From: an uncultured Planctomycetaceae bacterium | GTDB taxonomy: Bacteria; Planctomycetota; Planctomycetia; Planctomycetales; Planctomycetaceae | NCBI GenBank assembly: GCA_963976765.1 | Contig: CAXBME010000005.1 | Location: 62,001 to 126,000 of the forward strand | Length of the DNA: 64,000 nucleotides | Reading direction: 5' to 3' | Shown here: positions 18,229 to 55,500 of the stretch, one piece after another | Numbering within the stretch: the first letter of the stretch is position 1 | How the letters are laid out: every line of letters starts with the position of its first letter | The notes under the pieces: generated by a model | Database searches by the model: none | What the model was told of the DNA's origin: nothing | What the model saw: the letters and a program-made list of their open reading frames with translations, nothing else | Made by a program: the position numbers and the translations under genes

Positions 18229-20367
18229 ATGACTGGTTTTGACCAATTGCATCCCGCCCTGCAGCACCACATCGTCAACAGCCTCGGCTGGCGTGAGCTG
18301 CGACCGTTTCAGGATGCCGTCATCCCGCAGGTGCTCGACGGCAAGCACCTGATCGTGCTCGCACCGACGGCTGGCGGTAAGACGGAAGCGGCGTTCTTTC
18401 CGGTTATGTCGCGAGCGTTGTCCGAAGGCTGGTCTGGCCTGAGCATGCTCTACATCTGCCCGATCAAGGCGCTGCTCAACAATCTGGACTTCCGCCTGCA
18501 GCGCTACACCACGCTGCTGGGGCGACAGTCGGCGGTCTGGCACGGGGACATCAAGCCATCGGCCCGCAAGCGAATTCTGCGCGAGCCGCCCGACTGCCTG
18601 CTGACGACGCCCGAGTCGCTGGAAGTCATGCTGGACTCTCCCAACGTGGATGACCGGCGGCTGTTCGCCAACCTGCAGGTCGTCATCATCGACGAAATTC
18701 ACGCCTTCGCCGGTGACGACCGTGGCTGGCATCTGCTGGCCGTGCTGGAACGCATCAGCCGCTTGGCGGGACGCGAACTGCAGCGAATCGGGCTGTCGGC
18801 CACAGTCGGGAATCCCGAGATGCTCGCCGACTGGCTGGCAGGATCGTGCAAGGGGACGCGTGATGTGTTTCTGCCGGCTGACTCAGGACCGGGCGAAGCG
18901 GACGTGACGCTCGATTACGTCGCATCGCTGCAGAACGCCGCCGTGGTGATCAGTCGCCTGCATCGCGGCGAGAAGCGGCTCGTCTTCATGGACAGCCGAG
19001 CCCGCGCCGAACAGCTTGGGACCGAACTGCGAAGTCTCAGCGTGCGGACGTACGTGACGCACAGCTCGCTCAGCCCGGAACAACGCAGGCAGGCGGAAGA
19101 AGCCTTCGCGACGCAGGACGACTGCGTCATCGTCGCCACCAGTGTGCTCGAACTGGGCATCGACGTCGGTGACCTGGACCGGGTCATCCAGATCGACGCT
19201 CCCGGCACGGTCGCCAGCTTTCTGCAGCGTATGGGTCGCACGGGACGTCGAGCGGGCAGTCCTCGCAACTGCCTGTTTCTGGCCACGCGAGACGAGTCGC
19301 TGATTCAGGCGGCCGGCCTGATCGACCTGTGGCAGACCGGCTTTGTCGAGCCCATCGTTCCGCCACCGCATCCCTGTCACATCGTCGCTCAGCAGTTGAT
19401 GGCGTTGACGCTGCAGGAAGGGGGCATTGGACGACGGGACTGGTTCCGCTGGATCGAGGGAGTGTCTGGTTTCGCGGCCATCCCGCCGGAGCAGATCGAG
19501 CGGATCGTGGATGGGATGCTGGCCAGCGATATCCTCTGGGATGAAGACGGCATCCTCGGCATGGGCCGCGAAGGCGAAGACACTTTCGGTCGCCAGCACT
19601 TTCTGGAGCTGTTCTCGGTCTTCATGTCGCCGCCCCTGTTCGCGATCCGGCACGGACGAGCAGACCTCGGCTTCGTGGACGAGATGACGTTCCTGAGCCG
19701 CCAGGAGGGAGCACGAGTCCTGCTGCTGGGTGGTCGAGCCTGGCAGGTGACACACATCGACTGGCAGCGCAAGGTCGCGTTCGTCGAGCCCAGCGAACAG
19801 AAAGGACGCTCCCGCTGGTTAGGAACCGCGCCCGGCCTGGGGTTTCATCTGTGTCAGGCGATCCAGCGAGTGCTCGCATCTGACGAGCCCCAGACTTGCT
19901 GGTCGCAACGAGCGATCGACCGCCTGACAGAACTTCGTGCCGGCTACTCGTGGCTGGTTCCTGCGGCGTCGTCTTCAAGTGATGAGTCAGCCTCAAACGT
20001 CCCGGTCATCCTCCAGGAGGCGGACGACAGCGTCTCCTGGTGGACGTTCAGCGGGTCTGGTGGCAACGCGACCGTCGCGGCCGAGTTGGCAAAGCTGCTG
20101 CAGAGCCGCGTGGACCACGACTGCTTCAAACTCGACTTCGAGTCGTATGTGACGACCGAGCAACTAACTGCCGCCATTCAACAGCTCAAGGAAGTCCCTT
20201 CGAAGCAGCTGCGACCCACTATCGACGATGAAGCCATCACCGCCCTGAAGTTTTCCGAGTGCATCCCGCTCGACCTCGCAGTGGACATGCTGGCCCGGCG
20301 TCTTCACGACGAAGAAGCAACAGACTTTTTAACCCGTGCCACCGCTCGCACCGTCATCCTGCACTGA
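18229..20367 (+). CDS. brxHI: BREX-2 Lhr-like DEAD/DEAH helicase BrxHI
   Basis: APTAGGKT, DEIH, SAT, LELGIDVG, QRMGRTGR. Confidence 0.88.
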   Translation: MTGFDQLHPALQHHIVNSLGWRELRPFQDAVIPQVLDGKHLIVLAPTAGGKTEAAFFPVMSRALSEGWSGLSMLYICPIKALLNNLDFRLQRYTTLLGRQSAVWHGDIKPSARKRILREPPDCLLTTPESLEVMLDSPNVDDRRLFANLQVVIIDEIHAFAGDDRGWHLLAVLERISRLAGRELQRIGLSATVGNPEMLADWLAGSCKGTRDVFLPADSGPGEADVTLDYVASLQNAAVVISRLHRGEKRLVFMDSRARAEQLGTELRSLSVRTYVTHSSLSPEQRRQAEEAFATQDDCVIVATSVLELGIDVGDLDRVIQIDAPGTVASFLQRMGRTGRRAGSPRNCLFLATRDESLIQAAGLIDLWQTGFVEPIVPPPHPCHIVAQQLMALTLQEGGIGRRDWFRWIEGVSGFAAIPPEQIERIVDGMLASDILWDEDGILGMGREGEDTFGRQHFLELFSVFMSPPLFAIRHGRADLGFVDEMTFLSRQEGARVLLLGGRAWQVTHIDWQRKVAFVEPSEQKGRSRWLGTAPGLGFHLCQAIQRVLASDEPQTCWSQRAIDRLTELRAGYSWLVPAASSSSDESASNVPVILQEADDSVSWWTFSGSGGNATVAAELAKLLQSRVDHDCFKLDFESYVTTEQLTAAIQQLKEVPSKQLRPTIDDEAITALKFSECIPLDLAVDMLARRLHDEEATDFLTRATARTVILH

Positions 20368-20705
20368 CCGTCCATCACTCCAAAGGCGTGCAGGCATACA
20401 GCTCCGACGTGCGACGAAAGTCGGTCATCACAACTGGAATGTTGCAAGTGTATAGACGGCGTGCTGCCGTGTGAGTCGTTGTCAGGGCGGTCGAGCATGG
20501 GACCCGGCGGAAAAACGCGAAGGCCACTCGTCCAGGGATCGCATGTGTCGGCAAGGCGTCTTCCATCGTCAATTCTCATAATCTTTGAGTTCAGCGCGAA
20601 CAATTCGGGCCTGTCGCGCATCTAAACCCCGCAAGCACGGCGAAGTCACTCGACACCGTCGCATTCACAAGTCAGCAGACAACCAATAATCCGGGAACAA
20701 GCGAG

Positions 20706-20804
20706 ATGATGGTTTTCAGGTCAGGACTCATTAGCGAACAGAGCGGTTATGGACGATTTGCCGATCAATCGGCGAATACGTTGCCGTGCCCCCTGCGATT
20801 GTGA
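20706..20804 (+). CDS. Putative 32-aa leader peptide MMVFRSGLISEQSGYGRFADQSANTLPCPLRL
   Basis: Short ORF whose stop overlaps the antiterminator strand upstream of a terminator; RBS weak. Confidence 0.5.
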   Translation: MMVFRSGLISEQSGYGRFADQSANTLPCPLRL

Positions 20805-20864
20805 CATCTGGCCTGCCTCTCTCTCTGATTGCATAGCCCGGTGTCACTGACATCGGGCTTTTTT
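20801..20864 (+). promoter_or_regulatory. Attenuator: antiterminator (20801-20812/20836-20847) competing with intrinsic terminator
   Basis: GTGACATCTGGC pairs 11/12 with GCCCGGTGTCAC, which is also the terminator 5' strand. Confidence 0.65.
20835..20864 (+). terminator. Intrinsic terminator just before tRNA array
   Basis: AGCCCGGTGTC-ACT-GACATCGGGCT then T-run. Confidence 0.85.
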
Positions 20865-20892
20865 CGTGGACTCATGCAATTCACGACTCAGC

Positions 20893-20964
20893 GGGTCGGT
20901 AGCTGAGATGGTTTAGCGACGGTCTGAAGAACCGTAGACGAGGATTCAAGCGCCTCTCGACCCA
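20893..20964 (+). tRNA. tRNA-Phe(GAA), imperfect T-arm
   Basis: Acceptor GGGTCGG/TCGACCC; ACGGT-CTGAAGA-ACCGT. Confidence 0.75.
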
Positions 20965-20992
20965 CTTGCGCATCTGATGCGCACTCGCACAT

Positions 20993-21066
20993 GCCCCGTT
21001 CTTCTAATGGCTCAGGATGCTGGTCTTTCAAGCCGGCGATGCCGGGTTCAATTCCCGCACGGGGTA
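20993..21066 (+). tRNA. tRNA-Glu(TTC)
   Basis: Cloverleaf; loop CTTTCAA. Confidence 0.85.
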
Positions 21067-21072
21067 CTACAT

Positions 21073-21145
21073 GGCCTGTTAGTGAAACTGGACATCACGA
21101 GACGCTTCGAACGTCTTATTCCGGGTTCGAATCCTGGGCGGGCTA
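21073..21145 (+). tRNA. tRNA-Arg(TCG)
   Basis: AGACG-CTTCGAA-CGTCT; TTCGAAT T-loop. Confidence 0.9.
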
Positions 21146-21152
21146 CTTACAA

Positions 21153-21225
21153 CGGGATGAAGGGGAGTTGGCGCCCCGCCTGGTTTGGGACCAGGAGATC
21201 GCAGGTTCGAATCCTGTCATCCCGA
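21153..21225 (+). tRNA. tRNA-Pro(TGG)
   Basis: CCTGG-TTTGGGA-CCAGG; C1-G72, A73. Confidence 0.9.
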
Positions 21226-21243
21226 CTGACGAAGACTCAACAC

Positions 21244-21316
21244 AGCCCGGTCGTTCAACGGTCGAGGACGCCGTTCTGATAAGGCGGAGACGAAGGTTCG
21301 ACTCCTTCTCGGGCTA
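21244..21316 (+). tRNA. tRNA-Ile(GAT)
   Basis: Loop CTGATAA; cloverleaf. Confidence 0.88.
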
Positions 21317-21395
21317 CTTGAAATTCACACAGACAATACCCGGAGCCTGACATGCCGACGCTGCATCGATTGAAACAGATACCCACTCCTCGCAC

Positions 21396-21467
21396 GAGGT
21401 CGTGGTGTAACGGCAGCACAGCAGACTTTTAATCTGCACGGCGAGGGTTCGAATCCCTCCGACCTCA
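21396..21467 (+). tRNA. tRNA-Lys(TTT)
   Basis: GCAGA-CTTTTAA-TCTGC. Confidence 0.9.
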
Positions 21468-21486
21468 TTGAGCAACACGAGGCACA

Positions 21487-21558
21487 CGGCCCGTAGCTCA
21501 AGGGTGAGAGCAGGCTCCTTATAAGGGCACGACGACGGTTCGACTCCGTCTGGGCCGA
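21487..21558 (+). tRNA. tRNA-Ile(TAT), rare anticodon
   Basis: Loop CTTATAA; A73; canonical D and T arms. Confidence 0.85.
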
Positions 21559-21572
21559 CTGAGAGAAGAACC

Positions 21573-21821
21573 ATGAAACGCACAATTTACAGGCAATGCG
21601 AAGTCCGTCGCGGACCGGCATTCCGGCTGACTTGGATACCGGCATCGTTCGCGGTCAACGGCAAGATGCTGAATTTGCGTGACAACGGTGAGTGGTCCGA
21701 TGGCTGGGTCGTCACCGAAGTCTATCCGGACACCGAGCGGATCATCACGCCGACTCCGCAGAGTGAAATCAGACGTCACCGAAGAGCAACGGGAGACTCG
21801 CTTCCGCGGCTCGCCAAGTAA
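21573..21821 (+). CDS. 82-aa hypothetical protein embedded in tRNA array
   Basis: Fills gap between two tRNAs, purine-rich RBS, Trp-rich sequence. Confidence 0.65.
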   Translation: MKRTIYRQCEVRRGPAFRLTWIPASFAVNGKMLNLRDNGEWSDGWVVTEVYPDTERIITPTPQSEIRRHRRATGDSLPRLAK

Positions 21822-21827
21822 CAACAC

Positions 21828-21900
21828 GGGATCGAGGTGTTAGCGGCAGCACATCCGGCTCTTAACCGGACAGGTGAGGGTTCGAGCCCCTCCGATCCTA
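21828..21900 (+). tRNA. tRNA-Lys(CTT)
   Basis: TCCGG-CTCTTAA-CCGGA. Confidence 0.9.
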
Positions 21901-21911
21901 CTCGACGACCA

Positions 21912-21983
21912 GCACTGGTCGTTCAGCGGCAAGGACACCGCACTCGTAATGCGGCAACGTGGGTTCGAGTCCCACCCGGTGCT
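21912..21983 (+). tRNA. tRNA-Thr(CGT)
   Basis: CCGCA-CTCGTAA-TGCGG. Confidence 0.9.
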
Positions 21984-22016
21984 CTGTAGTTCTTTGACAA
22001 TTGGTTCATTTCATCA

Positions 22017-22087
22017 GCGCCCATGATGTAGCGGCAGCCTACTGCCTTGCCATGGCGGAAGTGCGGGTTCGACTCCCGCTGGGCGCT
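22017..22087 (+). tRNA. tRNA-Gly(GCC)
   Basis: Loop TTGCCAT; U73. Confidence 0.85.
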
Positions 22088-22114
22088 CTCGGCATACATT
22101 GAGTCTGCACTTAT

Positions 22115-22205
22115 CAGGGCGTGGGAAAGTCTGGCCCCTTTTTGTTTTGAACAGGTCGAGTGCTTCGTGAGCACGAGATCGTCGGTTCAAATCCGGCCGT
22201 CCTGA
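22115..22205 (+). pseudogene. tRNA-Pro-bodied gene with element in D-arm and CGT anticodon
   Basis: CAGGGCG/CGTCCTG-A acceptor and T-arm intact; D-arm 3' half replaced (22135-22158); loop TTCGTGA. Confidence 0.7.
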
Positions 22206-22235
22206 CTGCGGCTTCGGCCGCGACATAAACAACAT

Positions 22236-22310
22236 TGCGGTGGTGCTCGTGCTGGTACGGGCAGGCGGCTGTTAACCGTTTTGACGCAGGTTCGATTCCT
22301 GCCACCGCAG
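22236..22310 (+). tRNA. tRNA-Asn(GTT)
   Basis: Loop CTGTTAA; U1-A72, G73. Confidence 0.85.
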
Positions 22311-22316
22311 CTTTGG

Positions 22317-22402
22317 GGAAGTCATCCGGCTGGATGAGGAGCCTGCCTCGAAAGCAGGTGAGGGCAAATTGTCCGTTGTGGGTTCGAGTCCCACGGCTTC
22401 CG
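22317..22402 (+). tRNA. tRNA-Ser(CGA)
   Basis: CCTGC-CTCGAAA-GCAGG; long variable arm; G73. Confidence 0.85.
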
Positions 22403-22418
22403 CTTCGTGAAACAACAC

Positions 22419-22490
22419 GTGCCCTTGGCCGAGCGGCAAAGGTTCCAGGCTTCCAACCTGGCGAGGCGGGTTCGACTCCCGCAGGGCACT
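22419..22490 (+). tRNA. tRNA-Gly(TCC)
   Basis: CCAGG-CTTCCAA-CCTGG; U73. Confidence 0.9.
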
Positions 22491-22498
22491 CTCTTCAT

Positions 22499-22570
22499 TG
22501 CGGGGTGTCTGTTGGTCGACCGGCGTGGCTTTGAACCACGTCGACGCGGGTTCGATTCCTGCACCCGCAA
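22499..22570 (+). tRNA. tRNA-Gln(TTG), atypical D-arm
   Basis: CGTGG-CTTTGAA-CCACG; U1-A72. Confidence 0.75.
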
Positions 22571-22599
22571 CTTCGATGACGGCTCGAACAGGAATCCAA

Positions 22600-22670
22600 T
22601 GCGGGATCGTTCAATGGCAGGACGCGGCGCTCTGAACGCCGTAATGCTGGTTCGAGTCCAGCTCCCGCAA
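22600..22670 (+). tRNA. tRNA-Gln(CTG)
   Basis: CGGCG-CTCTGAA-CGCCG. Confidence 0.9.
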
Positions 22671-22735
22671 CTGCGGCACTGCCGCTTTGTTCGAGCTACC
22701 GCTCGGATGAGCGATCCAGCGTCGAGAGCAACTAC

Positions 22736-22819
22736 GGAAGTCAACCGGCCGGATGAGGAGCCTGTCTTGAAAACAGGTGCGGGGTTAGCCCGTTGTGGGT
22801 TCAAGTCCCACGGCTTCCG
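22736..22819 (+). tRNA. tRNA-Ser(TGA)
   Basis: CCTGT-CTTGAAA-ACAGG; long variable arm; paralog of Ser(CGA). Confidence 0.85.
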
Positions 22820-22837
22820 CCTTCTAAAGAACAAGAC

Positions 22838-22910
22838 GGTCCTGTGGCCCAGCGGCGAGGGCAGCTCCCTTACAAGGAGACGATCGGTGGTTCGAGTCCA
22901 CCCAGGATCA
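22838..22910 (+). tRNA. tRNA-Val(TAC)
   Basis: Loop CTTACAA. Confidence 0.88.
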
Positions 22911-22921
22911 CTTCACGACAT

Positions 22922-22994
22922 GGCACCGTAGCCCAACGGCAGAGGCGGTCGTCTCAAACGCGACGAAGTGTGAGTTCGAATCTCACCGGTGCCA
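22922..22994 (+). tRNA. tRNA-Leu(CAA), short variable arm
   Basis: GTCGT-CTCAAAC-GCGAC; 5-nt V loop GAAGT. Confidence 0.85.
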
Positions 22995-23014
22995 CTTGAA
23001 GCAAAACACAACAT

Positions 23015-23089
23015 GCCCTCGCAGAGCAGCCAGGAGTGCTCGCCATCCTGTCACGATGGAGATCGTCGGTTCGAATCCGATCGGGGGTG
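23015..23089 (+). tRNA. tRNA-Asp(GTC)
   Basis: CCATC-CTGTCAC-GATGG; G73. Confidence 0.88.
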
Positions 23090-23122
23090 CTTGTCACAAA
23101 CGGAAAAAGAAAAAGAACTTTC

Positions 23123-23195
23123 GACGCGGTAGCCCAATGGGAGAGGCAACCGGTTTAAGCCCGGTCCAGTGTGGGTTCGACTCCCACCCGCGTCA
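23123..23195 (+). tRNA. tRNA-Leu(TAA), short variable arm
   Basis: ACCGG-TTTAAGC-CCGGT; V loop CCAGT. Confidence 0.85.
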
Positions 23196-23214
23196 TTCAC
23201 ACAGCAATCACGAC

Positions 23215-23285
23215 GGCCCATTCGTCTAGCGGCAGGATGCCAGGTTCTCAGCCTGGAGACGGGAGTTCGATTCTCCCATGGGTCA
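23215..23285 (+). tRNA. tRNA-Glu(CTC)
   Basis: CCAGG-TTCTCAG-CCTGG. Confidence 0.9.
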
Positions 23286-23301
23286 CTCAGTAGCAAGACA
23301 T

Positions 23302-23375
23302 GGCACCGTAGCCCAATTAGTAGAGGCGTCTGGCTTAGGACCAGAAGGTTGAGAGTTCGAATCTCTCCGGTGCTA
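23302..23375 (+). tRNA. tRNA-Leu(TAG), short variable arm
   Basis: TCTGG-CTTAGGA-CCAGA; V loop AGGTT. Confidence 0.85.
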
Positions 23376-23395
23376 TTCACAAAAGAATCCAACAC

Positions 23396-23477
23396 GCGTC
23401 GGCTGGGCACTGGTGAGCCCACGTGGCTGTAACCCACACGCCGAAAGGCTTTGGCGGTTCAACTCCGTCCCGACGCA
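23396..23477 (+). tRNA. tRNA-Tyr(GTA)
   Basis: Loop CTGTAAC; long V arm GCC-GAAA-GGC. Confidence 0.88.
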
Positions 23478-23496
23478 CTCGACATCTCATGAATAC

Positions 23497-23569
23497 GGTG
23501 GCGTAGTGTCAATGGCGAGCACGACGGATCGTCGATCCGTTAGAGCGGGTTCGAGGCCCGTCGTCACCG
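23497..23569 (+). tRNA. Atypical tRNA, anticodon GTC (Asp-like, C33)
   Basis: ACGGA-TCGTCGA-TCCGT; GGTGGCG/CGTCACC, G73. Confidence 0.65.
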
Positions 23570-23589
23570 TCGCGTTTAGACAGCAACAT

Positions 23590-23672
23590 GACCAGGTGGT
23601 GGAACGGTAGACACGCGACGCTCAGAACGTCGTGCCCTTTGAGGCATGGGAGTTCGAATCTCCCTCTGGTCA
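23590..23672 (+). tRNA. tRNA-Leu(CAG), long variable arm
   Basis: CGACG-CTCAGAA-CGTCG. Confidence 0.9.
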
Positions 23673-23677
23673 CTGAC

Positions 23678-23768
23678 GAGTTGAAAGTTGCGAGTGCAGA
23701 GTGGAGAGATTCGGCGAACCTGATCGTCGACCGCTGACTCTCAACTCGGAACCTTCAACACTCAACTC
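23678..23768. repeat. Heptamer-repeat inverted hairpin spacer
   Basis: GAGTTGA-type units opposite TCAACTC-type units. Confidence 0.65.
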
Positions 23769-23770
23769 AT

Positions 23771-23840
23771 TGCAGGTGCGGCAGGTGCCCAGTTGGCTCT
23801 CATAAGGCCGGCCTCCCCGGCTCGATACCGGGACCTGCAA
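23771..23840 (+). tRNA. Atypical tRNA-Met/Ile2(CAT), mini D-arm
   Basis: TGCAGGT/ACCTGCA; loop CTCATAA; T-loop CTCGATA. Confidence 0.65.
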
Positions 23841-23863
23841 CTTTTCAAACAGAAACAACACAT

Positions 23864-23931
23864 CGCGGGTGGGCGAGGCTCATCGGGGTTTCATAAGCCT
23901 CGACAACCGGGTGCGACTCCCGGACCCGCTA
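23864..23931 (+). tRNA. Atypical initiator-like tRNA-Met(CAT), mini D-arm
   Basis: CGCGGGT/ACCCGCT with C1:T72 mismatch; loop TTCATAA; T-loop TGCGACT. Confidence 0.65.
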
Positions 23932-23940
23932 CTTCCAAGA

Positions 23941-24019
23941 GAGTCGAGAGCTGAGTGCCCAGAGTCGAGAGACAGCCTCGTTGCTGGTCCCTGGACTCTC
24001 GTCTCTCAACTCTGGACTC
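23941..24019. repeat. Heptamer-repeat inverted hairpin spacer
   Basis: GAGTCGA/GAGCTGA units opposite CTGGACT/CTCAACT units. Confidence 0.65.
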
Positions 24020-24024
24020 AACCC

Positions 24025-24096
24025 GACTCCGTGGTCCAACGGCAACGACACCTGCGTGACATGCAGGAGACGATGGTTCAACTCCGTCCGGGGTCA
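24025..24096 (+). tRNA. tRNA-Val(GAC)
   Basis: CCTGC-GTGACAT-GCAGG (G32). Confidence 0.85.
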
Positions 24097-24115
24097 CTTG
24101 AGCTGAAGTAAGAAT

Positions 24116-24186
24116 GGTCTGCAGGTGTTTCGGCGGCACACCGCTGTGGTAAGGCGGAAGGCCGGGTTCAATTCCCGGGCGGACCT
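24116..24186 (+). tRNA. tRNA-Thr(GGT)
   Basis: CCGCT-GTGGTAA-GGCGG (G32). Confidence 0.85.
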
Positions 24187-24205
24187 CTTGAAGAGAAGAC
24201 GACAC

Positions 24206-24276
24206 GGGCTGCTCGTCCAATGGGAAGACGCCTGGCTTGCAACCAGGTAATCGGGGTTCGACTCCCCGGCGGTCCA
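24206..24276 (+). tRNA. tRNA-Ala(TGC)
   Basis: G3:U70; CCTGG-CTTGCAA-CCAGG. Confidence 0.9.
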
Positions 24277-24288
24277 CTTGATGACAAC

Positions 24289-24359
24289 GGGGTCATGGTC
24301 CAACGGGACGACTCCAGCATGGCATGCTGGCAATCCGGGTTCGATTCCCGGTGACTCCA
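24289..24359 (+). tRNA. tRNA-Ala(GGC)
   Basis: G3:U70; CCAGC-ATGGCAT-GCTGG. Confidence 0.9.
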
Positions 24360-24367
24360 CTCGATAC

Positions 24368-24453
24368 GGAAGGTAGCCGGATACGGTTGGCCGGACCGCA
24401 CTGCTAATGCGTGTGCCTTTACGGGCGTGTGAGTTCGAATCTCATGCCTTCCG
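24368..24453 (+). tRNA. tRNA-Ser(GCT)
   Basis: Loop CTGCTAA; long V arm; G73. Confidence 0.85.
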
Positions 24454-24462
24454 CTTTGATAT

Positions 24463-24551
24463 GGCCTGATGGTGAAACGGAAATCATCCCTCGCTTCTAA
24501 CGAGGCCCCGTCTCGTTTGTAACAGGGCGGGTTCGAATCCTGGTCGGGCTA
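24463..24551 (+). tRNA. tRNA-Arg(TCT) with 21-nt element in variable loop
   Basis: CCTCG-CTTCTAA-CGAGG; V region 24506-24526 versus 4 nt in paralog Arg(TCG). Confidence 0.75.
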
Positions 24552-24582
24552 CTGAGAAGACAAGCCGCCTGTTGCGGCAAAA

Positions 24583-24690
24583 GGAAGGGCAACCCGATGG
24601 GTGACGGGAACCGGTTGGAAGCCGGTCGAGTGCGTTGACGCGTGCCTTGCGAGTTCGACTCGGGCACCGCCCGCAGGGTGGTCCCTTCCG
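24583..24690 (+). pseudogene. tRNA-Ser(GGA) with hairpin element in T-stem
   Basis: ACCGG-TTGGAAG-CCGGT; acceptor intact; 24662-24680 interrupts 3' T-stem. Confidence 0.75.
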
Positions 24691-24692
24691 CT

Positions 24693-24768
24693 GTGGCCGG
24701 GTCCGGTGCTGGTTTCCGGAGACAGACTGTGAATCTGTTCGTCGTCGGTTCAATTCCGATCGGCCACC
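24693..24768 (+). tRNA. tRNA-His(GTG), no encoded G-1
   Basis: ACAGA-CTGTGAA-TCTGT; C73; base -1 is T. Confidence 0.85.
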
Positions 24769-24865
24769 TCCAAACCGAGCGTTTGGATCGGATTGCCGTA
24801 GGGGAGCGTCACCAGATTGGGACGCCGCTACGGCGAGTGAGTTTTATGAGCAAAGGACTGGATCG

Positions 24866-25462
24866 ATGGTTGCTGCTGTACTTGATCGACCAACGCTGGT
24901 GCTGAATCGCAACTGGCAGCCTGTCGGCGTCGCCACGGTTGCGAAGGCGCTGACGAAGGTCTGGAACGAGTCGGCGCGGATCGTCGATCCTGCTGACTAC
25001 CAGCAATACACATGGCAGGACTGGGCACAACTGCGACCGGAAGACGGCGATCTGTTCATTCAGACTCGTCGATTCCAGTTGCGGGTTCCGGAGGTTGTCA
25101 CACTGACGAAGTACGACCGCCTGCCGACGAACTCGGTGATGTTCAGCCGGCGAAATGTCTTCAAGCGAGACAAGTTCACGTGCCAGTATTGCGGTGCTCG
25201 ACCAGGCAGCGAGGAATTGACGATCGACCACGTCACGCCGAGGGCTCAGGGTGGAACATCCACCTGGGTCAACTGTGTGCTGGCGTGCATCGGCTGCAAC
25301 TCGCGCAAGGCTGACCGGACTCCGGAGCAGGCTCGGATGCCGCTGCGATCAAAGCCGGTTCGGCCGACGTGGCGACCGCTGTACGCGGCTCGCGGAGTCC
25401 GCATCGAAAGCTGGTCACGTTTCGTTAGCGAGAGCTACTGGAACATAGAACTGAGTGAGTGA
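24866..25462 (+). CDS. HNH endonuclease
   Basis: TLVLN N-terminus, RDKFTCQYCG, LTIDHV.P, CIGCN..K; start re-assigned to MVAAV. Confidence 0.9.
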   Translation: MVAAVLDRPTLVLNRNWQPVGVATVAKALTKVWNESARIVDPADYQQYTWQDWAQLRPEDGDLFIQTRRFQLRVPEVVTLTKYDRLPTNSVMFSRRNVFKRDKFTCQYCGARPGSEELTIDHVTPRAQGGTSTWVNCVLACIGCNSRKADRTPEQARMPLRSKPVRPTWRPLYAARGVRIESWSRFVSESYWNIELSE

Positions 25463-25507
25463 CACGAGTCGCTGCCGGCCTCGGCGTTGAGGTCGGCAGC
25501 TTTACAC

Positions 25508-25577
25508 AGCGGTGTGCTCCTGGGAGAGCAGGCAGATTCCAAACCTGTCCCACGGGGTTCGACTCCTCGCACCGTTG
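25508..25577 (+). tRNA. tRNA-Trp(CCA)
   Basis: AGCGGTG/CACCGTT, G73; loop TTCCAAA. Confidence 0.8.
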
Positions 25578-25600
25578 CTGCGGCATTGCCGCATTAAGTT

Positions 25601-25691
25601 GCCGACGTGGCTCGATACAGAAAGGCGCCGGTCTTGCCCTGTCACAATTTGCAAACGGCGGATCATGCGGGTGCGAATCCTGCCGTCGGCC
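25601..25691 (+). pseudogene. tRNA-Thr(TGT)-like gene with element in anticodon loop
   Basis: GCCGACG/CGTCGGC acceptor, T-arm present; CTTG followed by 25 nt where 8 expected. Confidence 0.7.
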
Positions 25692-25696
25692 CTCAA

Positions 25697-25785
25697 GCCC
25701 AGCGGATGTGATGAACAGAATGGCGGTCTTCAATGCCCGCTGGACGAGGTTCGACGGGCGGCGCCCGAAGAATAGTCCGGCGGAA
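25697..25785 (+). pseudogene. Decayed tRNA (Arg-like body) with hairpin element after T-loop
   Basis: GGCGG..CCCGC anticodon-arm remnant, CGAGGTTCGA, then element similar to the Ser(GGA) insert. Confidence 0.5.
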
Positions 25786-25802
25786 TTTTTAATGCACAAC
25801 GC

Positions 25803-25875
25803 GTCCTCGGAGTGTGGCGGATTCGCACGCGACCCTGCGAAGGTCGAGGACCAGGTTCGATTCCTAGCGGGGACA
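25803..25875 (+). tRNA. tRNA-Arg(GCG), rare anticodon
   Basis: CGACC-CTGCGAA-GGTCG. Confidence 0.88.
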
Positions 25876-25894
25876 CTTTTCATTTCGACAACAC

Positions 25895-25966
25895 GACACC
25901 GATGCTCGATGGTCGGGCGGCTGCCTGCAAAGCAGCTCATAGTGAGTTCGATTCTCACCGGTGTCT
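25895..25966 (+). tRNA. tRNA-Cys(GCA)
   Basis: GCTGC-CTGCAAA-GCAGC; U73. Confidence 0.9.
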
Positions 25967-26064
25967 CTTTAATGCTTGCCTTGATGCTGTCATTGCCGGC
26001 GGTGCGTTGGGCTCAAGAGTCAGCCTGACGTATTCCGTGAACGGGTTTTGAACATGACGGTGTC

Positions 26065-26140
26065 GATGTGGTCGCCCAATTGGTAGGGCACCAGGTTTTG
26101 CACCTGGCTGTTACGGGTTCGAGTCCCGTCCACGGCTCCA
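26065..26140 (+). ncRNA. tRNA-like RNA with encoded CCA, mismatched acceptor, loop TTTTGCA
   Basis: Well-formed D arm (GCCC/GGGC), CCAGG/CCTGG stem, ACGGG-TTCGAGT-CCCGT; ends TCCA. Confidence 0.7.
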
Positions 26141-27766: not shown

Positions 27767-28924
27767 CTATCGTCGCGAACCTTTGTAACTCAGAACCGGA
27801 CGCAGCTCGCGTTCGATGCGCGTCAATTCGGACTGTGCTCGCATGACTGCGTGGATGTCACGGTACGCGGACGGTGCTTCGTCTCGCAGGCCTGCCGCAA
27901 TGTTGTGGTCGAACCACACCGATCGCATTTGCTGATGCAGCGACCGGGCTGTCACCGACTTCTTTGCGTCCGTGCGACTGAAACGTCGTCCTGCGCCGTG
28001 TGAGCTGCTGCACAAGGACTGGGCATTGCCTCGGCCAGTGACGTGGAAACTCGCCGTGCCCATCGAACCGGGGATGATTCCCGGTTTGCCATCGTGAGCA
28101 CTCTGGGCGCCCTTTCTGTGGACGAGGAACTGCTGACCTCCATGTTGTTCCCGACGAACATGATTGTGGTTGCTCTGTATGAGCGTCTGTGGATCGGCTT
28201 CTACGCCGAACCGGGTATAGAGAATGTCGCTGGCGGCACTCAGCATGGCCAGTCGGTTCAACTCTGCGTACTGCGATGCCCACTCCACGTCGTTGATGTA
28301 CTCAGTCCCGGCTGGTGAGTTCGCGTCAACAAACCCAAGGCCGTTCGATTGTGAGTCACACTTGCTGATGTGAAGTGATGAGACCAACTGACCGATCCCA
28401 CGAGAGCCGCTGTGGACCATCAGCCACAGGCGTCCAGACTGATCGGCCTGGAACTCCAGGAAGTGGTTGCCTCGACCAAGTGACCCAAACTGCACGCGCG
28501 CGTCACGCTGCTTTTCCGCTTCGAGACGTGGACAACTCAGAGGACGGGCAAGCAGGTCATCGGGTAAAGATTCCGGCATCGTCTCCCGGTGATGGCGATT
28601 CGCTGGCACGTACCGATAAAGGTCGGCCAGCAGAGTTGCTGCGGCGGTTTCGTTTCCAAGGACGTCGGCATTGGCATCAAAACCGATGGCGGCCATGCCA
28701 CAGCCGATGTCACTCCCAACGGCTGCGGGGTAAAGCAGCCGGGACGTTGCAAGAACGACGCCGACGCAGACATCTCCCGCCAAGTGGACATCAGGCATGA
28801 CGGCGATGCGTTGAACGTCATCCGCCTCAGACAGACGCCGTAGTGATGTTTGCACGTCGTGACTGAGCGGTTCGGTAAGCCAGACTGGGATATCGTCTCC
28901 GGCAGTGATGTGCTTACTACTCAT
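27767..28924 (-). CDS. rtcB: RNA ligase RtcB
   Basis: MPDVH, VGSDIGCGM, GRGNHFLE, HSGSRG, HRKGA, PGSMG, HGAGR, DEAP; AGGAG RBS. Confidence 0.93.
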   Translation of the reverse strand: MSSKHITAGDDIPVWLTEPLSHDVQTSLRRLSEADDVQRIAVMPDVHLAGDVCVGVVLATSRLLYPAAVGSDIGCGMAAIGFDANADVLGNETAAATLLADLYRYVPANRHHRETMPESLPDDLLARPLSCPRLEAEKQRDARVQFGSLGRGNHFLEFQADQSGRLWLMVHSGSRGIGQLVSSLHISKCDSQSNGLGFVDANSPAGTEYINDVEWASQYAELNRLAMLSAASDILYTRFGVEADPQTLIQSNHNHVRREQHGGQQFLVHRKGAQSAHDGKPGIIPGSMGTASFHVTGRGNAQSLCSSSHGAGRRFSRTDAKKSVTARSLHQQMRSVWFDHNIAAGLRDEAPSAYRDIHAVMRAQSELTRIERELRPVLSYKGSRR

Positions 28925-29369
28925 CTTCGCTCCTATCAATCACGTCATTCGTCGCCTGGGTCGACACAATGCGGAACCTCAGCGCGGGCGCACGTTTGCG
29001 AGTGATTGAGGCAGCGACCTCGGAACGAAGCCGGCCGGCAACTCGATCCAGTCGTTCCAGCACGACGGATGGATCGGCAGGGGCTTCGAGACTGCTCTCG
29101 ATACTGACCGTCACAAGCATTTGCGAGGCGTTGGGCGCTGGGATGACAGACTCGACGATGAGCGACTGCAGCAGCTCGTCGGAAAACTCGCCAGACAGGA
29201 CCAGGCTCAGCGTCTGCTCGACCTGCTGGCAGAGCTGCTGTGTCTTGCGGTCCCGTTTGTTTCGATCCGAATGACTTTTGAAGAAGCGGCGTGGATCGAC
29301 GCCGTCGTCTTCCTGAATCTCTCCACAGCACGCGAGCATCTGCTCGCGCTGACGATTGTTGAGTGGCAT
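28917..29369 (-). CDS. RbfA-like ribosome-binding factor paralog
   Basis: RbfA-type C-terminus (GRLRSEVAASITRKRAPALRF) with extra CCGE..DDG.DPR N-terminus; overlaps rtcB start. Confidence 0.75.
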   Translation of the reverse strand: MPLNNRQREQMLACCGEIQEDDGVDPRRFFKSHSDRNKRDRKTQQLCQQVEQTLSLVLSGEFSDELLQSLIVESVIPAPNASQMLVTVSIESSLEAPADPSVVLERLDRVAGRLRSEVAASITRKRAPALRFRIVSTQATNDVIDRSEDE

Positions 29370-29456
29370 AAGGCTCTCACAAGGGAATGGCGTTGAGGCT
29401 GAAGAATTGGAAGCCACGCCGTGAGAGCTGGTCAAATCGCTGCAGACTGACCTTGG

Positions 29457-29522
29457 TCAGGAGCGATCGACGGAAAGCGTCAAGAGGGACGGCGAGGCCA
29501 GACATAGTTCAAAACATCGCAT
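29457..29522 (-). CDS. Putative 21-aa leader peptide MRCFELCLASPSLLTLSVDRS
   Basis: Strong AAGGAGG Shine-Dalgarno; upstream of rbfA-like/rtcB. Confidence 0.55.
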   Translation of the reverse strand: MRCFELCLASPSLLTLSVDRS

Positions 29523-29723
29523 GGTCGCCTCCTTCCGTCGGGGAGCAGTGTTAAAAGCGGTTCATCGTCACCGTGTGCGGCAGTGACACGGCGTCCGGCG
29601 AGGCGGTTCGCGCCGCGGCTCACTAATTTCGGCTCGCCGCCAAATCTGACGCCGGAGTGAGTCCATCCTTCGCCTCATTTGAGTAGACCGTGAGGCGTTC
29701 CCCTGACTACCTCATACACTGGA

Positions 29724-48359: not shown

Positions 48360-49810
48360 GTACTTGTTTACCGAACCGACAGTGTGATGAGGGCAGGTTT
48401 GGTGGCGGTCAGGTTGAGTTTCAGAAAGTTGAGCGGGTTGATGGTTTGCTGAGTGGCGGTGACGAGGACGGTCATCAGGATGGATTGGACTTCGGCTCCG
48501 GTCCAGGTTCGGTTGCCGCCCCAGACTTTGCGGTTGACGACCGCCGGGCGGATGGCCTGCTCGGCTCGCCAGTTGGTGGCATCAACGGTGGGGTCGCGGA
48601 GGAACGTGAACAGGTCGTCGAGATGCTTCTCCAGGTGTTTGGCGAATCGTTCGTTGGCGGCGTGCGATTTGATCGGTGCGACCAGTCCTCGCATGCTTGT
48701 CGTGAACCGACCGGCCAGCACGCGCAGGCCGTGTGCGGTCAGTTCTTCCCGTTTGAAACGATCACGGGCCGTCAGCGCTTTCCGGAACAGGTCCAGCACG
48801 GCGCGAGGGAATCGCACCGCTCCACCGACAGCGGTCTCGAGTAGTTCGTGACAGCGGCGCATCAGGTGCGCCAGACACTGCTGATGCAGTGCCTGCTTGA
48901 ATCGGTCGTAGACGCTCCAGCCGTCGTGAATCAACGTGCCGGAGTACTCTTCGCCCAGCAGCCCGATGGCCGGCTGACCGCTGCGTGTCGGGTCGATCAG
49001 GTAATACGTGAAGTGCTCCGTCACGAAGTCGTGCAGCCAGGCGTTCTCGCCGTTCACCCGCCAGCCGGTTTCATCGCAGACCACTCGCGGCGAACCACGC
49101 ACGTGCTGGCCGATCAGGTCGTAAGACGGCCGCAGCTTCTTCGCCAACCGCTGCTGCGCCCGCCAGTTCGTACTGCGGGAAATGGTGATCCCGAACAGTC
49201 GCTCCACCAGCTGGCGACACTTGCCGTGTGAGAGGCCCAGCTCTTTATTCGCAACGGTCAAGGCCGCCTGCAGGTCAGCTCCGAGCTGGCTGCCCGCCGC
49301 TCCCAGAGCGTCCGAAGTCTGCAGCTCATGCCGACCCTGAACCCGCTCGCCGCAACCCGTGCAATGCCCGACGTGAATGTCGAACTGCCGGTGGATCGGC
49401 TTTCGCGGGATGTCCGTCTGGTACTGCGAGCAGATTGCGTCTTCGGTCAGTTCGCCACAGCCACACTGTGGGCAGCACTCCGGCAATGGAACATTCCAGT
49501 GTTCATCAATCTGCTCGGGAATCGTTCGCCGTGCCTGCGTCCCGTAATCGTCACCTGGCTTGCGACCGGGCTTTTTCGGAACAGCCACCTTCGGCTTCCG
49601 AAAAGGAGTCGCCTGTCGCTTGCCCGCACGCTGAGATGCTTCGAGAGCTTTCTGCAGCTTCTCGACCTGTTCCTTCAACTGCTCAAGCTCAACCGAGAGA
49701 CTCCTGCAACCGCCGCATTCAGAGTGTTGTTCGTCGTCTTCATCCATCATCAACGAAAGCTAAACACACACGCCAAAATGCGCAACCCCATTCAGGCGGT
49801 AATCAAGTAC
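48360..49810 (-). mobile_element. IS66-family insertion sequence, single-ORF (ISBst12-like), 1451 bp
   Basis: Terminal IRs GTACTTGTTTACCG / CGGTAATCAAGTAC; 8-bp TSD CCAGCAGG at 48352-48359 and 49811-49818. Confidence 0.92.
48368..49753 (-). CDS. IS66 family DDE transposase
   Basis: Coiled coil, CxxC finger, CDETG, HDG, CLAHL, TNWRAEQAIR. Confidence 0.93.
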   Translation of the reverse strand: MMMDEDDEQHSECGGCRSLSVELEQLKEQVEKLQKALEASQRAGKRQATPFRKPKVAVPKKPGRKPGDDYGTQARRTIPEQIDEHWNVPLPECCPQCGCGELTEDAICSQYQTDIPRKPIHRQFDIHVGHCTGCGERVQGRHELQTSDALGAAGSQLGADLQAALTVANKELGLSHGKCRQLVERLFGITISRSTNWRAQQRLAKKLRPSYDLIGQHVRGSPRVVCDETGWRVNGENAWLHDFVTEHFTYYLIDPTRSGQPAIGLLGEEYSGTLIHDGWSVYDRFKQALHQQCLAHLMRRCHELLETAVGGAVRFPRAVLDLFRKALTARDRFKREELTAHGLRVLAGRFTTSMRGLVAPIKSHAANERFAKHLEKHLDDLFTFLRDPTVDATNWRAEQAIRPAVVNRKVWGGNRTWTGAEVQSILMTVLVTATQQTINPLNFLKLNLTATKPALITLSVR

Positions 49811-52559: not shown

Positions 52560-55500
52560 TCAGAGGGCAGACTCAACCCAGGTCGGCAGCGTGATCGAGA
52601 AAATCTCATCGATCTCGTCAGGCTCGCCGTCAACAACGTCGCCGGTGTCAGCGCCTGTACCGCTACCGCCTGCCAGAATGTCGGAGCCACTTTGACCTTT
52701 AACAACGTCGACGCCCGACATTCCGATTGCGAGGTCGTTGCCGGATCCGCCGTAGAGGCTGTCGTTGCCCGAGCCACCAAACAGGACGTCGTTTCCGGCT
52801 CCGCCGTTTACGATGTCGTTTCCGGCTCCGCCGTCCAGACCGTCGTTTCCGGACTGGCCGAACAGAACGTCGTCGTCATCGCCGCCGACAAGTGTGTCGT
52901 CGTCGTCTCCCCCATCGAGTGTGTCGGCCCCAGCCTCACCCAGCAGGCTGTCATCGCCTGCTCCGCCGTTGAGCTGGTCGTTGCCGGCAGCGCCGATGAG
53001 CGTGTCCTGATCATCGCCGCCGTTAAGAACGTCTGAGCCATTACCGCCATCCAGGCTGTCATCGCCCGAGCCACCGTTGAGCAGATCGTTGCCCGACTCA
53101 CCGAACAGTGTGTCCTGGCCATCGTCGCCACTTAAGGTGTCGCTGCCAGCTCCGCCGTTTAGTTCATCGTTGCCTGAACCGCCGAAGAGCTCATCTCGCG
53201 AGCCGCCTTGACCTCGTAATCGATCGTTGCCGGCTCCTCCATCCAGAGTGTCGCTTCCGGCTGAACCAAGCAGCGTGTCGTCTCCTGAATTTCCAAGCAG
53301 GCTGTCGTTACCGGCGTAGCCGATCAGGATGTCGTCTCCGGAACCGCCAATCAATGTGTCAGCGCCGCTGAACCCACGGAGAATGGTATTCCCGGAAAAT
53401 GACGAAGCGTCGATCCGATTTGCGAGGAAACCACCGCTCAGCTCGGCCAGTTCCAGGTTGACTAACTGATCGGTGCCGACGCCAGTGAGTGAAACGTCCG
53501 TCAACGTAAAGTCGACATTTCCCGATTCCATAAGTTTGTCCGTACCGTCGCCGCCATCAATCGTATCGTCACCCAGACCGCCGACCAGCTGGTCATCGCC
53601 GGACTGACCACGGACATCGTCGTTGCCGTTCTCGCCATCAATCGTGTCGCTGCCCGCTCCGCCGAGTACGAGATCGTCACCCTCGCCACCAAAGACTTCG
53701 TCGTCGTCGGCACCGCCGTTAACAATGTCGTTACCCTGGCCGCCGAGCAGGCTGTCGTTACCTTCGTCGCCGAATAGCTGATCGTCGTTGTCTGACCCGA
53801 TGACGGTGTCGTCACCAGCTCCGGCGGACACCGTGACCGGTCCTGCAAACAGACTTGCATCAATTGTGTTGGCCGATGCGCCGCCAGTCAGCGATGCCTG
53901 CTCAATCTCAAAAAACAGGTCGATGCCAACGCCGATCAATGACGAAGCGCCGATCGTAAAGTTGGTGTCGCCGGATTCTTCAATCGTGTCCGTACCGTCT
54001 CCGCCGACTAATGTGTCGTCCCCGGTATGCCCTCTGAGCAGGTCGTCGTCGCCATTTCCGAACAGGATGTCGTTACCGGATCCTCCGATCAGAGTGTCGT
54101 TGCCGGCGTTGCCATTCAGGTTCAATCCACGAGTCGCAGCGGCGCCATTCAAGGTGTCGTTTCCGGCACCGCCACGGACATCAATTGTGGCGGTGAATCC
54201 GGAATCGATGGCGAGAATCGTTACTGAATCATCCCCTCCGCCAGCGTCGATAATGATCGTGCCGGTCGCATTGACGAAGTGAACGGTTTCGCTGGAAGAA
54301 ACGCTCGACAGTCGCATGATTCCGTTGCCGGGGATGCCTTCGTCGTCGAGCGTGATGATGTCGGACGTCGGGCCGAATTCGAAGAATCGAGTCATCGCGA
54401 CAATTGAATCAAAGATTGGTTCCAGGCCGGCATAGAAGACGGAAGTGTTCGAGGCGTCTGCGATAAGTACCGAACCGTCACTGGCGTTTGTGAAGCTGTG
54501 AAGGATGCTGTTGACCGGGCTGCCCTGCAACGCCAGCGAGTCGTTGCCCAGCTGACCATTGAAACTGATGACATCTGAAACGGAGTGGTCGATGTCCAGC
54601 AAGTCGTCGCCATCGCCACCATCGACGAGGATTTCACCGGTGAATGCCGAATCGATTGACCTGATTGAGATGGTATCGTTGCCGCTGCCGCCAGCCAGAA
54701 GTAGATCGTCTGCTCCTGTCGCGAAGCTGACCGGGGGATCGCCGTTCAGGACATACTCGGACATTCCGTTACCGGCAATTCCGTCGTCCTGAATGATCAG
54801 CGAGTTTGACATGTTGCTCGCCAGAATGATTGTTGGCTGGTAAGCGCTTCCGCCGTCAACCTGCCATCCCAGATCGTTCAACGCGGCATAGTCGAGAGCC
54901 GTAAGGTTTTTTCGGACGCCATCGGGGATGTCTGGATCAAGTGCCACTTCTGTGCCGTTGTCCTGCAGATTCTGTCGCCAGTGACCAGGGTCTTCGAGCG
55001 GCACCGGGCCAGCACCATCGTACTCAAGAATCGCAGACGAACCGACAAACAGTCCCCCCGACACAAGGTTGTTAAACGACGGAACTGTTCCGAATCCGAT
55101 GACATGAGCCAGTTCATGAATCGCGGTTGAGTAGAAATCGAACTCACCGGCATCCAGACCGGTCGTCGACAGGCCGAAATGCCAGTTCGCTGATTCGTCA
55201 AACGCGATCGACCCTCCAAACGGAGCGAAGTCCGTCTGCTGATTGTCGGGGCCGAGTGCTCCCGCCTGGCCACGTCCGAGAACCGTGTCGACCCATTGCT
55301 GGACCCCGGTGACGCTGCTGGCAAATCCCGGCCCGCCACTGCCCAGCGAACCGCCAAGATCGCGAGCACCGACATAGACTCGGATGATGTTTTCCCCAAC
55401 GATCAGATCATTGACGTTAAACGTGCCGCCGGTTGCGGGATCTTCAAAGGTCGCGGTCCATGTGTCAGCGACGTTGAACTTATGCGGGATGATTTCCAGG

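Follow-up and report, generated by a model that had tools for sequence, protein, structure and literature searches.

A putative ribosome-controlled attenuator in front of spare tRNA operons in the Planctomycetia

The long tRNA array of an uncultured Planctomycetaceae bacterium is very probably headed by a four-segment, ribosome-controlled transcription attenuator, which would switch on a spare tRNA operon when translation elongation becomes slow. The four segments, their mutually exclusive pairings, the covariation, and the conservation and position of a leader open reading frame (ORF) are all read from sequence, and at that level the element is conserved, covarying and real. Most likely, it gates spare tRNA operons across much of the Planctomycetia searched.

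Results

A long tRNA array beside a dispersed tRNA set

The stretch of DNA analysed (64,000 nt, hereafter the window) belongs to a chromosomal contig within a genome of 8.57 Mb, and it contains Pfam domains specific to planctomycetes, which assign it to that phylum. Its forward strand carries, at 20893..26140, a long array of 38 tRNA genes (ARAGORN, Rfam RF00005), the anticodons of which cover all 20 amino acids according to ARAGORN. With 38 genes in 5.2 kb, and with 47 tRNA genes dispersed in the genome outside both of its arrays, the locus is an L-array, i.e., at least 20 same-strand tRNA genes accompanied by dispersed housekeeping tRNAs. The second array is split across contigs C27 and C74, and its leader matches that of the window. 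The first gene of the array is tRNA-Phe(GAA), starting at 20893, and tRNA-Ile(TAT) (21487-21559) and tRNA-Arg(GCG) (25803-25876) are also among its members; TAT and GCG anticodons would presumably bypass lysidine and inosine modification, which fits a rescue set.

An HNH gene (24635-25462, Pfam) lies inside the array, as does an 82-aa ORF without Pfam match (21573-21821), while an SPFH gene follows 3' of the array and an rbfA-like gene and rtcB are convergent with it (all Pfam). Directly 5' of the array stands a complete type 2 BREX system (171-20367; pglW, pglX, pglY, pglZ, brxD and brxHI), the interval of which also holds an inserted DUF1016/YhcG gene and a UPF0489 gene; on C27, a brxD-like and helicase-like cluster is found 5' of the second array too. 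On the minus strand, a housekeeping-type tRNA-Val(GAC) at 30983-30880 is followed by a hairpin and then by a DUF1016-N gene, a region that has the appearance of one edge of an integrated element containing rtcB, the array and BREX. Elsewhere, the window encodes an IS66-family transposase (48368-49753) and a protein of 1066 aa in which RTX calcium-binding repeats occur (52560-55760).

The stop codon of the leader ORF lies in a strand that competes with a terminator

The leader ORF (20706..20804, plus strand) comprises 32 codons encoding MMVFRSGLISEQSGYGRFADQSANTLPCPLRL, with a second ATG at 20709 and the end P-L-R-L-TGA. Its Arg codons are AGG at 20718 and CGA at 20754 and 20796, and its TGA stop occupies 20802-20804. 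Downstream, segments 3 and 4 form an intrinsic terminator hairpin with T-run (20835..20864, plus strand; stem 20835-20845/20849-20859) of 11 bp, 7 of them G-C, with the loop ACT and a folding energy of -18.2 kcal/mol; the T-run ends at 20864 and tRNA-Phe begins 28 nt past it. Segment 2, the 5' strand of the antiterminator (20801..20812, plus strand; GTGACATCTGGC), includes the TGA stop and pairs at 11 of 12 positions with 20836-20847, with one G-U and one mismatch, two of its partners being terminator-loop bases. A sequence-only reading of this DNA had described such an arrangement, and each of its parts was recovered where it had been placed: the 11-bp terminator with T-run 28 nt before the first tRNA, the 11/12 pairing of 20801-20812 with the terminator 5' strand, the 32-codon ORF with one AGG, two CGA and a TGA inside the pairing strand, and the full tRNA set downstream.

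The antiterminator hairpin (20799-20848) folds at -19.3 kcal/mol, close to the -18.2 kcal/mol of the terminator, which is itself the strongest of nine terminator-like sites in 19500-25000 (shuffles, 4.8 +/- 2.0). The competing duplex, at -18.2 kcal/mol, is better than 100 of 100 shuffles, and the mean for 145 terminator-like hairpins on nine other contigs of the same genome is -9.4 kcal/mol; as it beats both the shuffles and these controls, the antiterminator duplex is not due to chance.

Homologous leaders are found in front of tRNA arrays across the class

A DNA search of 61 related genomes yielded a first set of 14 homologous regions. Thirteen of these, which include an array head, were compared with the window: one is truncated at a contig end, one looks divergent, and in the remaining 11 the last residues of the ORF are R-L or R-T, its TGA stop lies within a GTGAC strand, and the same terminator follows. 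A covariance model built from 26 leaders gave matches at E <= 0.001 in 78 of 151 class genomes and in 32 of 151 phylum genomes. Many weak matches are plain terminators; in the strong matches among those listed (94 examined), the stop is at the same model position and tRNA genes are directly 3' in nearly all. The idea that the element also precedes protein genes was discarded, as the tRNA-less matches among those listed are ordinary terminators. Several genomes carry two to three leader copies, some of them before short or decayed tRNA clusters (L143/L155, L145/L157, L154/L141 and others).

To avoid circularity, loci were also selected by the tRNA-Phe gene alone. This motif-free search of 401 class genomes gave 141 places in 126 genomes, 90 of which were analysed (the top 107 minus 17, namely 16 loci that the preceding searches had already supplied, the paralog among them, and one partial match). 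At least three tRNAs are present 3' within the fetched DNA in 83 of the 90 loci, and a terminator no more than 140 nt from the tRNA in 82, the other eight having none by the rule used. Removal of 12 redundant loci left 70 non-redundant ones, and in 64 of these a stop codon lies inside the strand that pairs with the terminator 5' arm. These 64 were retained for analysis. The other six, which had no stop accompanied by a duplex reaching -8, were dropped; the element is visible by eye in two of them (L294 and L298). At two loci (L251 and L267), a GCGAAC..CGTCT motif stands about 40 nt before tRNA-Phe with neither leader nor terminator, making them natural attenuator-less variants.

An independent pattern scan of all genomes, with the Arg codon unspecified, gave 120 matches, and the following counts refer to the 80 listed. 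Forty-three of those listed are Planctomycete-labelled; Arg at -2 together with a T-run is seen in 42 of the 43, and a tRNA lies within 400 nt in 39. Among the four tRNA-less ones listed, two are at contig ends or have little 3' DNA, one is a chance match, and the fourth has a degenerate tRNA-Phe-like gene 3' of the pattern. In non-Planctomycete taxa, a tRNA next to the pattern was found in 0 of the 37 matches listed, and the scan of viral contigs gave five matches, none with a T-run and none with a tRNA.

The stop codon follows the terminator arm with which it pairs

Over the 70 loci, the duplex of each leader with its own arm averages -16.4 kcal/mol, against -13.6 with the arms of other leaders (0 of 10,000 permutations), -11.4 for shuffled sequences, -11.3 for DNA 100 nt further upstream and the -9.4 of the 145 genomic hairpins; permutation values of this kind overstate significance because the homologs are related. 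For 53 of 70 loci the best duplex has a stop codon at its 5' end, compared with 25 of 145 controls, and the distance from stop to arm is 28-53 nt, mostly 32-38.

For covariation in a fixed register, 60 of the 64 leaders were anchored. The middle base of the stop and its partner form G-C in 48, A-T in 7 and G-T in 3 leaders and are unpaired in 2, so that the pair is Watson-Crick in 55 of 60 (shuffle mean, 42.9); for the fifth base, the counts are A-T 31, G-T 13, G-C 7, T-A 3 and unpaired 6. The stop bases change with their arm partner, from TGA opposite C to TAA or TAG opposite T, and the codon therefore remains a stop while tracking the terminator arm. Family and genus labels suggest that about two lineages gave rise to the change from G-C to A-T at the stop, and several families to the G-C at the fifth position.

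In an alignment of 26 rows, 97% of terminator cells are paired, with nine two-sided-change cells, a level reached by 0 of 500 shuffles. The antiterminator shows no two-sided change on this alignment (500 of 500 shuffles scored at least equally); a pattern that fixes the antiterminator bases had been used to choose 14 of its 26 rows. On the motif-free loci, a mutually exclusive antiterminator that overlaps the ORF and covaries was found. Both comparisons that had been proposed for homologous arrays came out in favour of the switch: the terminator covaries on the 26-row alignment and the antiterminator at two fixed-register positions of the motif-free loci, and the ORF stop falls inside the pairing strand at 64 of 70 loci.

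The reading frame and the end of the peptide are maintained

The leader ORF is kept as an ORF in homologs. In all 64, the frame that ends at the stop stays open over 30 codons or more, as opposed to 24 and 22 for the other frames, and in 60 of 64 an ATG is present in this frame at least 18 codons 5' of the stop (3 and 10 in the other frames); ORF length is mostly 29-50 codons, and the stops are TGA in 56, TAA in 5 and TAG in 3. The C-terminal residues from -4 to -1 are P (32 of 64), L (36), R (40) and L (30). Across leaders, P, L and R at -4, -3 and -2 are each encoded by four to five synonymous codons, and their retention despite this spread points to selection on the peptide. Between the window and its paralog copy, the leader ORF has three differences, all synonymous, and between the start of the ORF and the end of the terminator 5 of 159 columns differ, against 80 of 149 columns 5' of the promoter-like motif described below and 51 of 72 in the pre-tRNA spacer. 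Leaders show a modest Shine-Dalgarno signal (29 of 59, against 13 of 59), which is weak at the window locus.

Models of nascent-RNA folding favour a switch decided by ribosome position

Segment 1, the predicted anti-antiterminator (20717..20725, plus strand; CAGGTCAGG), pairs with 20807-20815 in a duplex of -15.4 kcal/mol. When 59 leaders were compared, the 27 nt that begin each ORF preferred their own segment 2 over those of others (z -4.8), and no specificity for segment 2 was seen in these leaders for windows 15-45 nt deeper in the ORF; helix 1:2 is strong at the window locus, and some homologs have a weak one or none. Within the ORF, a hairpin (20756..20777, plus strand; -10.6 kcal/mol) may be a candidate pause signal for RNA polymerase. 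Folds of the region from -60 to -12 before the stop are more stable than those of shuffles (mean z -1.4, with 29 of 64 below -1.5), and a GCCG..CGGC stem before the stop occurs in only 9 of 64 leaders.

To model ribosome stalling, the part of the nascent transcript under the ribosome was removed, the 3' edge being assumed to lie 15 nt past the P site, and the rest was folded as far as the 5' arm. With the P site at codons -25 to -5, the modelled antiterminator (at least six pairs) forms at 89-100% of the 64 loci, and closer to the stop at 62% (-4), 17% (-3) and 0% (-1), which restricts modelled switch-on to stalls at codon -5 or earlier. At the window locus, the model gives 11 antiterminator pairs with a stalled ribosome, 0.7 with the ribosome at the stop and 0 without a ribosome. 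The stall logic of the sequence-only reading would hold in this model insofar as a ribosome at the stop masks the antiterminator and an upstream stall frees it; however, the last three to four codons, including the final CGA, would already mask it. Folds of naked RNA keep the antiterminator in 56% of homologs, indicating that helix 1:2 is not universal. In full-sequence equilibrium, the terminator dominates even with a stalled ribosome (means of 0.7-2.5 antiterminator versus 8-10 terminator pairs), and as it wins at equilibrium in every state, the decision would have to be kinetic.

Dominance of the terminator in equilibrium folds is also what would be expected if the hairpin were a leaky constitutive terminator or a processing stem, with control residing only at a sigma-factor promoter and with ORF and pairing as by-products; segment 2 does look like a direct repeat of the 3' arm, as from a duplication, and separate control at the promoter level is likely. 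We nevertheless consider this very unlikely, given that the stop persists while its middle base follows its partner, and that it takes selection on both translation and pairing to account for the frame-specific openness and ATG, the synonymous conservation and the second covarying helix, the one at the beginning of the ORF. The contrast between the ORF-to-terminator stretch and its flanks in the paralog speaks against it as well.

The signal is probably a general one

Arginine codons had been hinted at as the sensor, which the comparison does not bear out: the paralog has CGG/CGC in place of both CGA codons, and leaders are poor in AGG. CGA accounts for 1.78% of codons in the genome and is not rare, and relative to base composition the leaders have AGG at 0.18x and Arg at 0.77x, the highest enrichments being those of Asn (2.0x), Phe (1.9x) and Glu (1.8x). 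No run of codons for a single amino acid, of the trp or his type, was found in the 64 leaders. The 32 codons of the window leader are of 27 kinds and encode 17 of the 20 amino acids, and over the 64 leaders the number of distinct amino acids per 25 codons is 13.7, compared with 13.1 in shuffles and 12.9 in genes. A pangram or codon-complete leader was rejected, as the amino-acid excess is slight (44 of 64 above the null) and distinct codons number 20.7 versus 20.6; release-factor-specific or read-through sensing was likewise rejected because three stop codons are in use. Mixed composition together with the lack of a codon run suggests that the signal is probably general, e.g., tRNA damage or shortage, starvation, or elongation inhibitors. 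Public RNA runs (contigs from three metatranscriptomes and one unlabelled run) share at most 0.18 of words, with the leader uncovered.

The conserved peptide end allows a more specific version, in which an (H/Y)-P-L-R-L peptide interacts with a ligand or with the ribosome tunnel, and termination is set by how long the ribosome dwells at the stop instead of by the overall speed of elongation. Such a sensor agrees with the retention of P-L-R-L through synonymous codons in a peptide that otherwise varies freely in length and sequence. We regard it as unlikely, since the motif is absent in at least one third of leaders (R at -2 in 40 of 64), and since the use of all three stops ties it to no single release factor. 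Moreover, a stall on the PLRL codons would, in the model, mask segment 2 and leave the array off rather than on, and the motif would be better explained as a hold to make termination secure.

A promoter-like motif is shared with rbfA-like and rtcB loci

A promoter-like motif, GCGAAC-N16-GCATCT(AA), is located at 20596..20625 (plus strand), 5' of the ORF and not 3' of the terminator. We take it to resemble the -35/-10 pair of ECF sigma factors; the part of an ECF sigma review that was available contained no motif for comparison. The two-box motif G[CT]GAAC-N16/17-[CG]GTC is present 110-330 nt 5' of the stop in 50 of 63 leaders versus 5 of 63 control windows, and the promoter-like motif precedes just 1 of the 47 non-array tRNA genes of the genome. 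A genome-wide motif scan (129 matches versus 64 for the reversed motif) was too noisy to define a regulon and was set aside.

These data bear on another explanation, according to which the TGACATC-GGC repeats are operators of a TrcR-like repressor, or the leader is a T-box or protein-bound RNA switch, and the promoter is at or after the hairpin. The TGACATC-GGC word occurs twice at the window locus (20802-20812 and 20848-20858), and the Anabaena array is under direct repeats and TrcR, as described in the accessible text of PMC8421152 and PMC10272220. On our reading this is extremely unlikely. G-U wobble is tolerated (13 of 60 at one position), as for RNA pairing; stop-to-arm spacing varies over 28-53 nt; and 28 of 82 loci have no more than 15 nt between the end of the terminator and the tRNA, too little to accommodate a promoter there. 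In addition, no sigma70-like promoter was found in 19500-25000, the Rfam search of the window returned tRNA matches only, and TGG is present in segment 2 in just 13 of 64 leaders. An attenuator transcribed from the upstream motif remains the preferred reading, and its logic is supported in homologs by the stop within the antiterminator, the covarying bases, the ATG-open frame and the promoter-like motif upstream.

The same motif is found at 29612 in front of the rbfA-like and rtcB unit (27767..29612, minus strand; Pfam RtcB and RBFA). Within 29612-29457 (minus strand) lies a 21-codon upstream ORF, MRCFELCLASPSLLTLSVDRS, with a strong GGAGG ribosome site; it is kept in the paralog on G000:C74, and the upstream ORFs of other genomes are unlike it. 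A switch in this upstream ORF was rejected, folds showing none for the hairpin before the rbfA-like start. The promoter-like motif precedes 13 of 32 rbfA-like loci versus 0 of 32 control windows, and 8 of the 13 have rtcB in the locus. The unit is probably co-regulated with the array, and the motif common to array and rtcB loci parallels the co-regulation of rtcB and array in Anabaena, as far as the accessible text of PMC8421152 goes. The RbfA-like protein itself (28917-29369, minus strand) is present in three copies in the genome and was matched in 72 of 201 genomes of the class, and the distant matches may include ordinary rbfA.

Discussion

A model for control of the array

In the proposed mechanism, RNA polymerase would start near 20630 from a GAAC/CGTC-type promoter, as motif conservation suggests, and a ribosome would load onto the leader ORF, as the conservation of frame and codons suggests. 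Under healthy translation, the ribosome would reach P-L-R-L-stop and cover segment 2, the 3:4 terminator would form, and transcription would stop before tRNA-Phe. A ribosome that is slow or stalled between the first codons and about codon -5 would cover or melt segment 1 and leave segment 2 free to pair with the emerging 5' arm, so that polymerase would read into the array. An untranslated leader would form helix 1:2 and the terminator would win, as modelled for the window locus, homologs being mixed. The tRNA output would then feed back on the signal that is sensed.

We also advance, tentatively and with slightly less than even confidence, a class-wide two-tier regulon for translation rescue. 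In it, an alternative-sigma promoter would be common to the array and rtcB, the leader would measure transit time with tRNA feedback, PLRL-stop would act as a nascent-peptide hold on the antiterminator, and helix 1:2 would tell slow elongation (on) from no initiation (off).

L-arrays occur in several phyla, and the only regulation found worked out in the sources accessible to us is TrcR repression in Anabaena. If the present model is true, it would represent a second, independent solution to L-array control and would extend attenuation to tRNA genes, with the product being the thing that is sensed. The purpose of the array would become testable, with a 270-nt reporter for inducing stresses (antibiotics, anticodon nucleases, starvation), and a phylum with few characterised regulatory parts would gain a compact sensor of translation stress. 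Compared with the sequence-only reading, the covarying anti-antiterminator, the upstream promoter-like motif and the synonymously conserved PLRL end are new. Attenuators are known for protein genes; for tRNA genes, no description of attenuation was found in the mostly open-access literature on tRNA arrays, operons and clusters, leader peptides, attenuation, antiterminators and Planctomycetes.

Comparison with known systems

T-box riboswitches are terminator/antiterminator switches tied to tRNA state, with a specifier in stem I and a UGGN bulge in the antiterminator. The element described here likewise links a terminator/antiterminator switch to tRNA state, but it has no Rfam T-box match and no conserved UGGN bulge (TGG 13/64), and the switch is built on an ORF. 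In the leaders trpL, hisL, leuL and thrL, mutually exclusive helices 1:2, 2:3 and 3:4 form, and ribosome position decides termination. The four-segment plan and position-dependent termination are shared with these leaders (the trp and leu attenuators are described in the accessible part of PMC10274678); in contrast, the Planctomycete leader has no regulatory codon run, has a longer ORF, regulates tRNA genes, and carries its stop inside segment 2, base-paired with the terminator arm.

In the trn operon of Anabaena PCC 7120, an L-array, translational stress induces the array (PMC8421152), and direct repeats in the promoter are bound by the DNA-binding repressor TrcR (PMC8421152, PMC10272220), which is nearly restricted to cyanobacteria (PMC10272220); Planctomycetes are named among L-array carriers (PMC8421152). 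Hallmarks of the TrcR regulon are direct repeats that overlie a sigma70 -10 box and an RHH repressor that binds them. The words "attenuat" and "leader" are absent from the main texts of both papers, and "terminator" from that of PMC8421152, in the versions accessible. As in Anabaena, a spare, near-complete tRNA set exists beside dispersed tRNAs, rtcB is apparently co-regulated and translational stress is the expected inducer, while control here appears to rest on an RNA attenuator and a non-sigma70 promoter motif instead of TrcR repression.

The whiB7/wblC attenuator, as presented in the accessible text of PMC10274678, contains an upstream ORF (uORF) whose efficient translation leads to the terminator and whose inefficient translation leads to the antiterminator and read-through; it senses many amino acids and ribosome-targeting drugs, and whiB7 expression rises when the start codon is lost. 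The leader studied here resembles this actinobacterial system in its long uORF of mixed composition and its translation-dependent intrinsic terminator. It differs in having a tRNA operon rather than a transcription factor as output, in its unrelated sequence without Ala enrichment (1.07x), in a helix 1:2 that predicts the off state when untranslated, and in its conserved PLRL-stop end. On the best reading, the whiB7 and trp attenuators are its nearest functional relatives.
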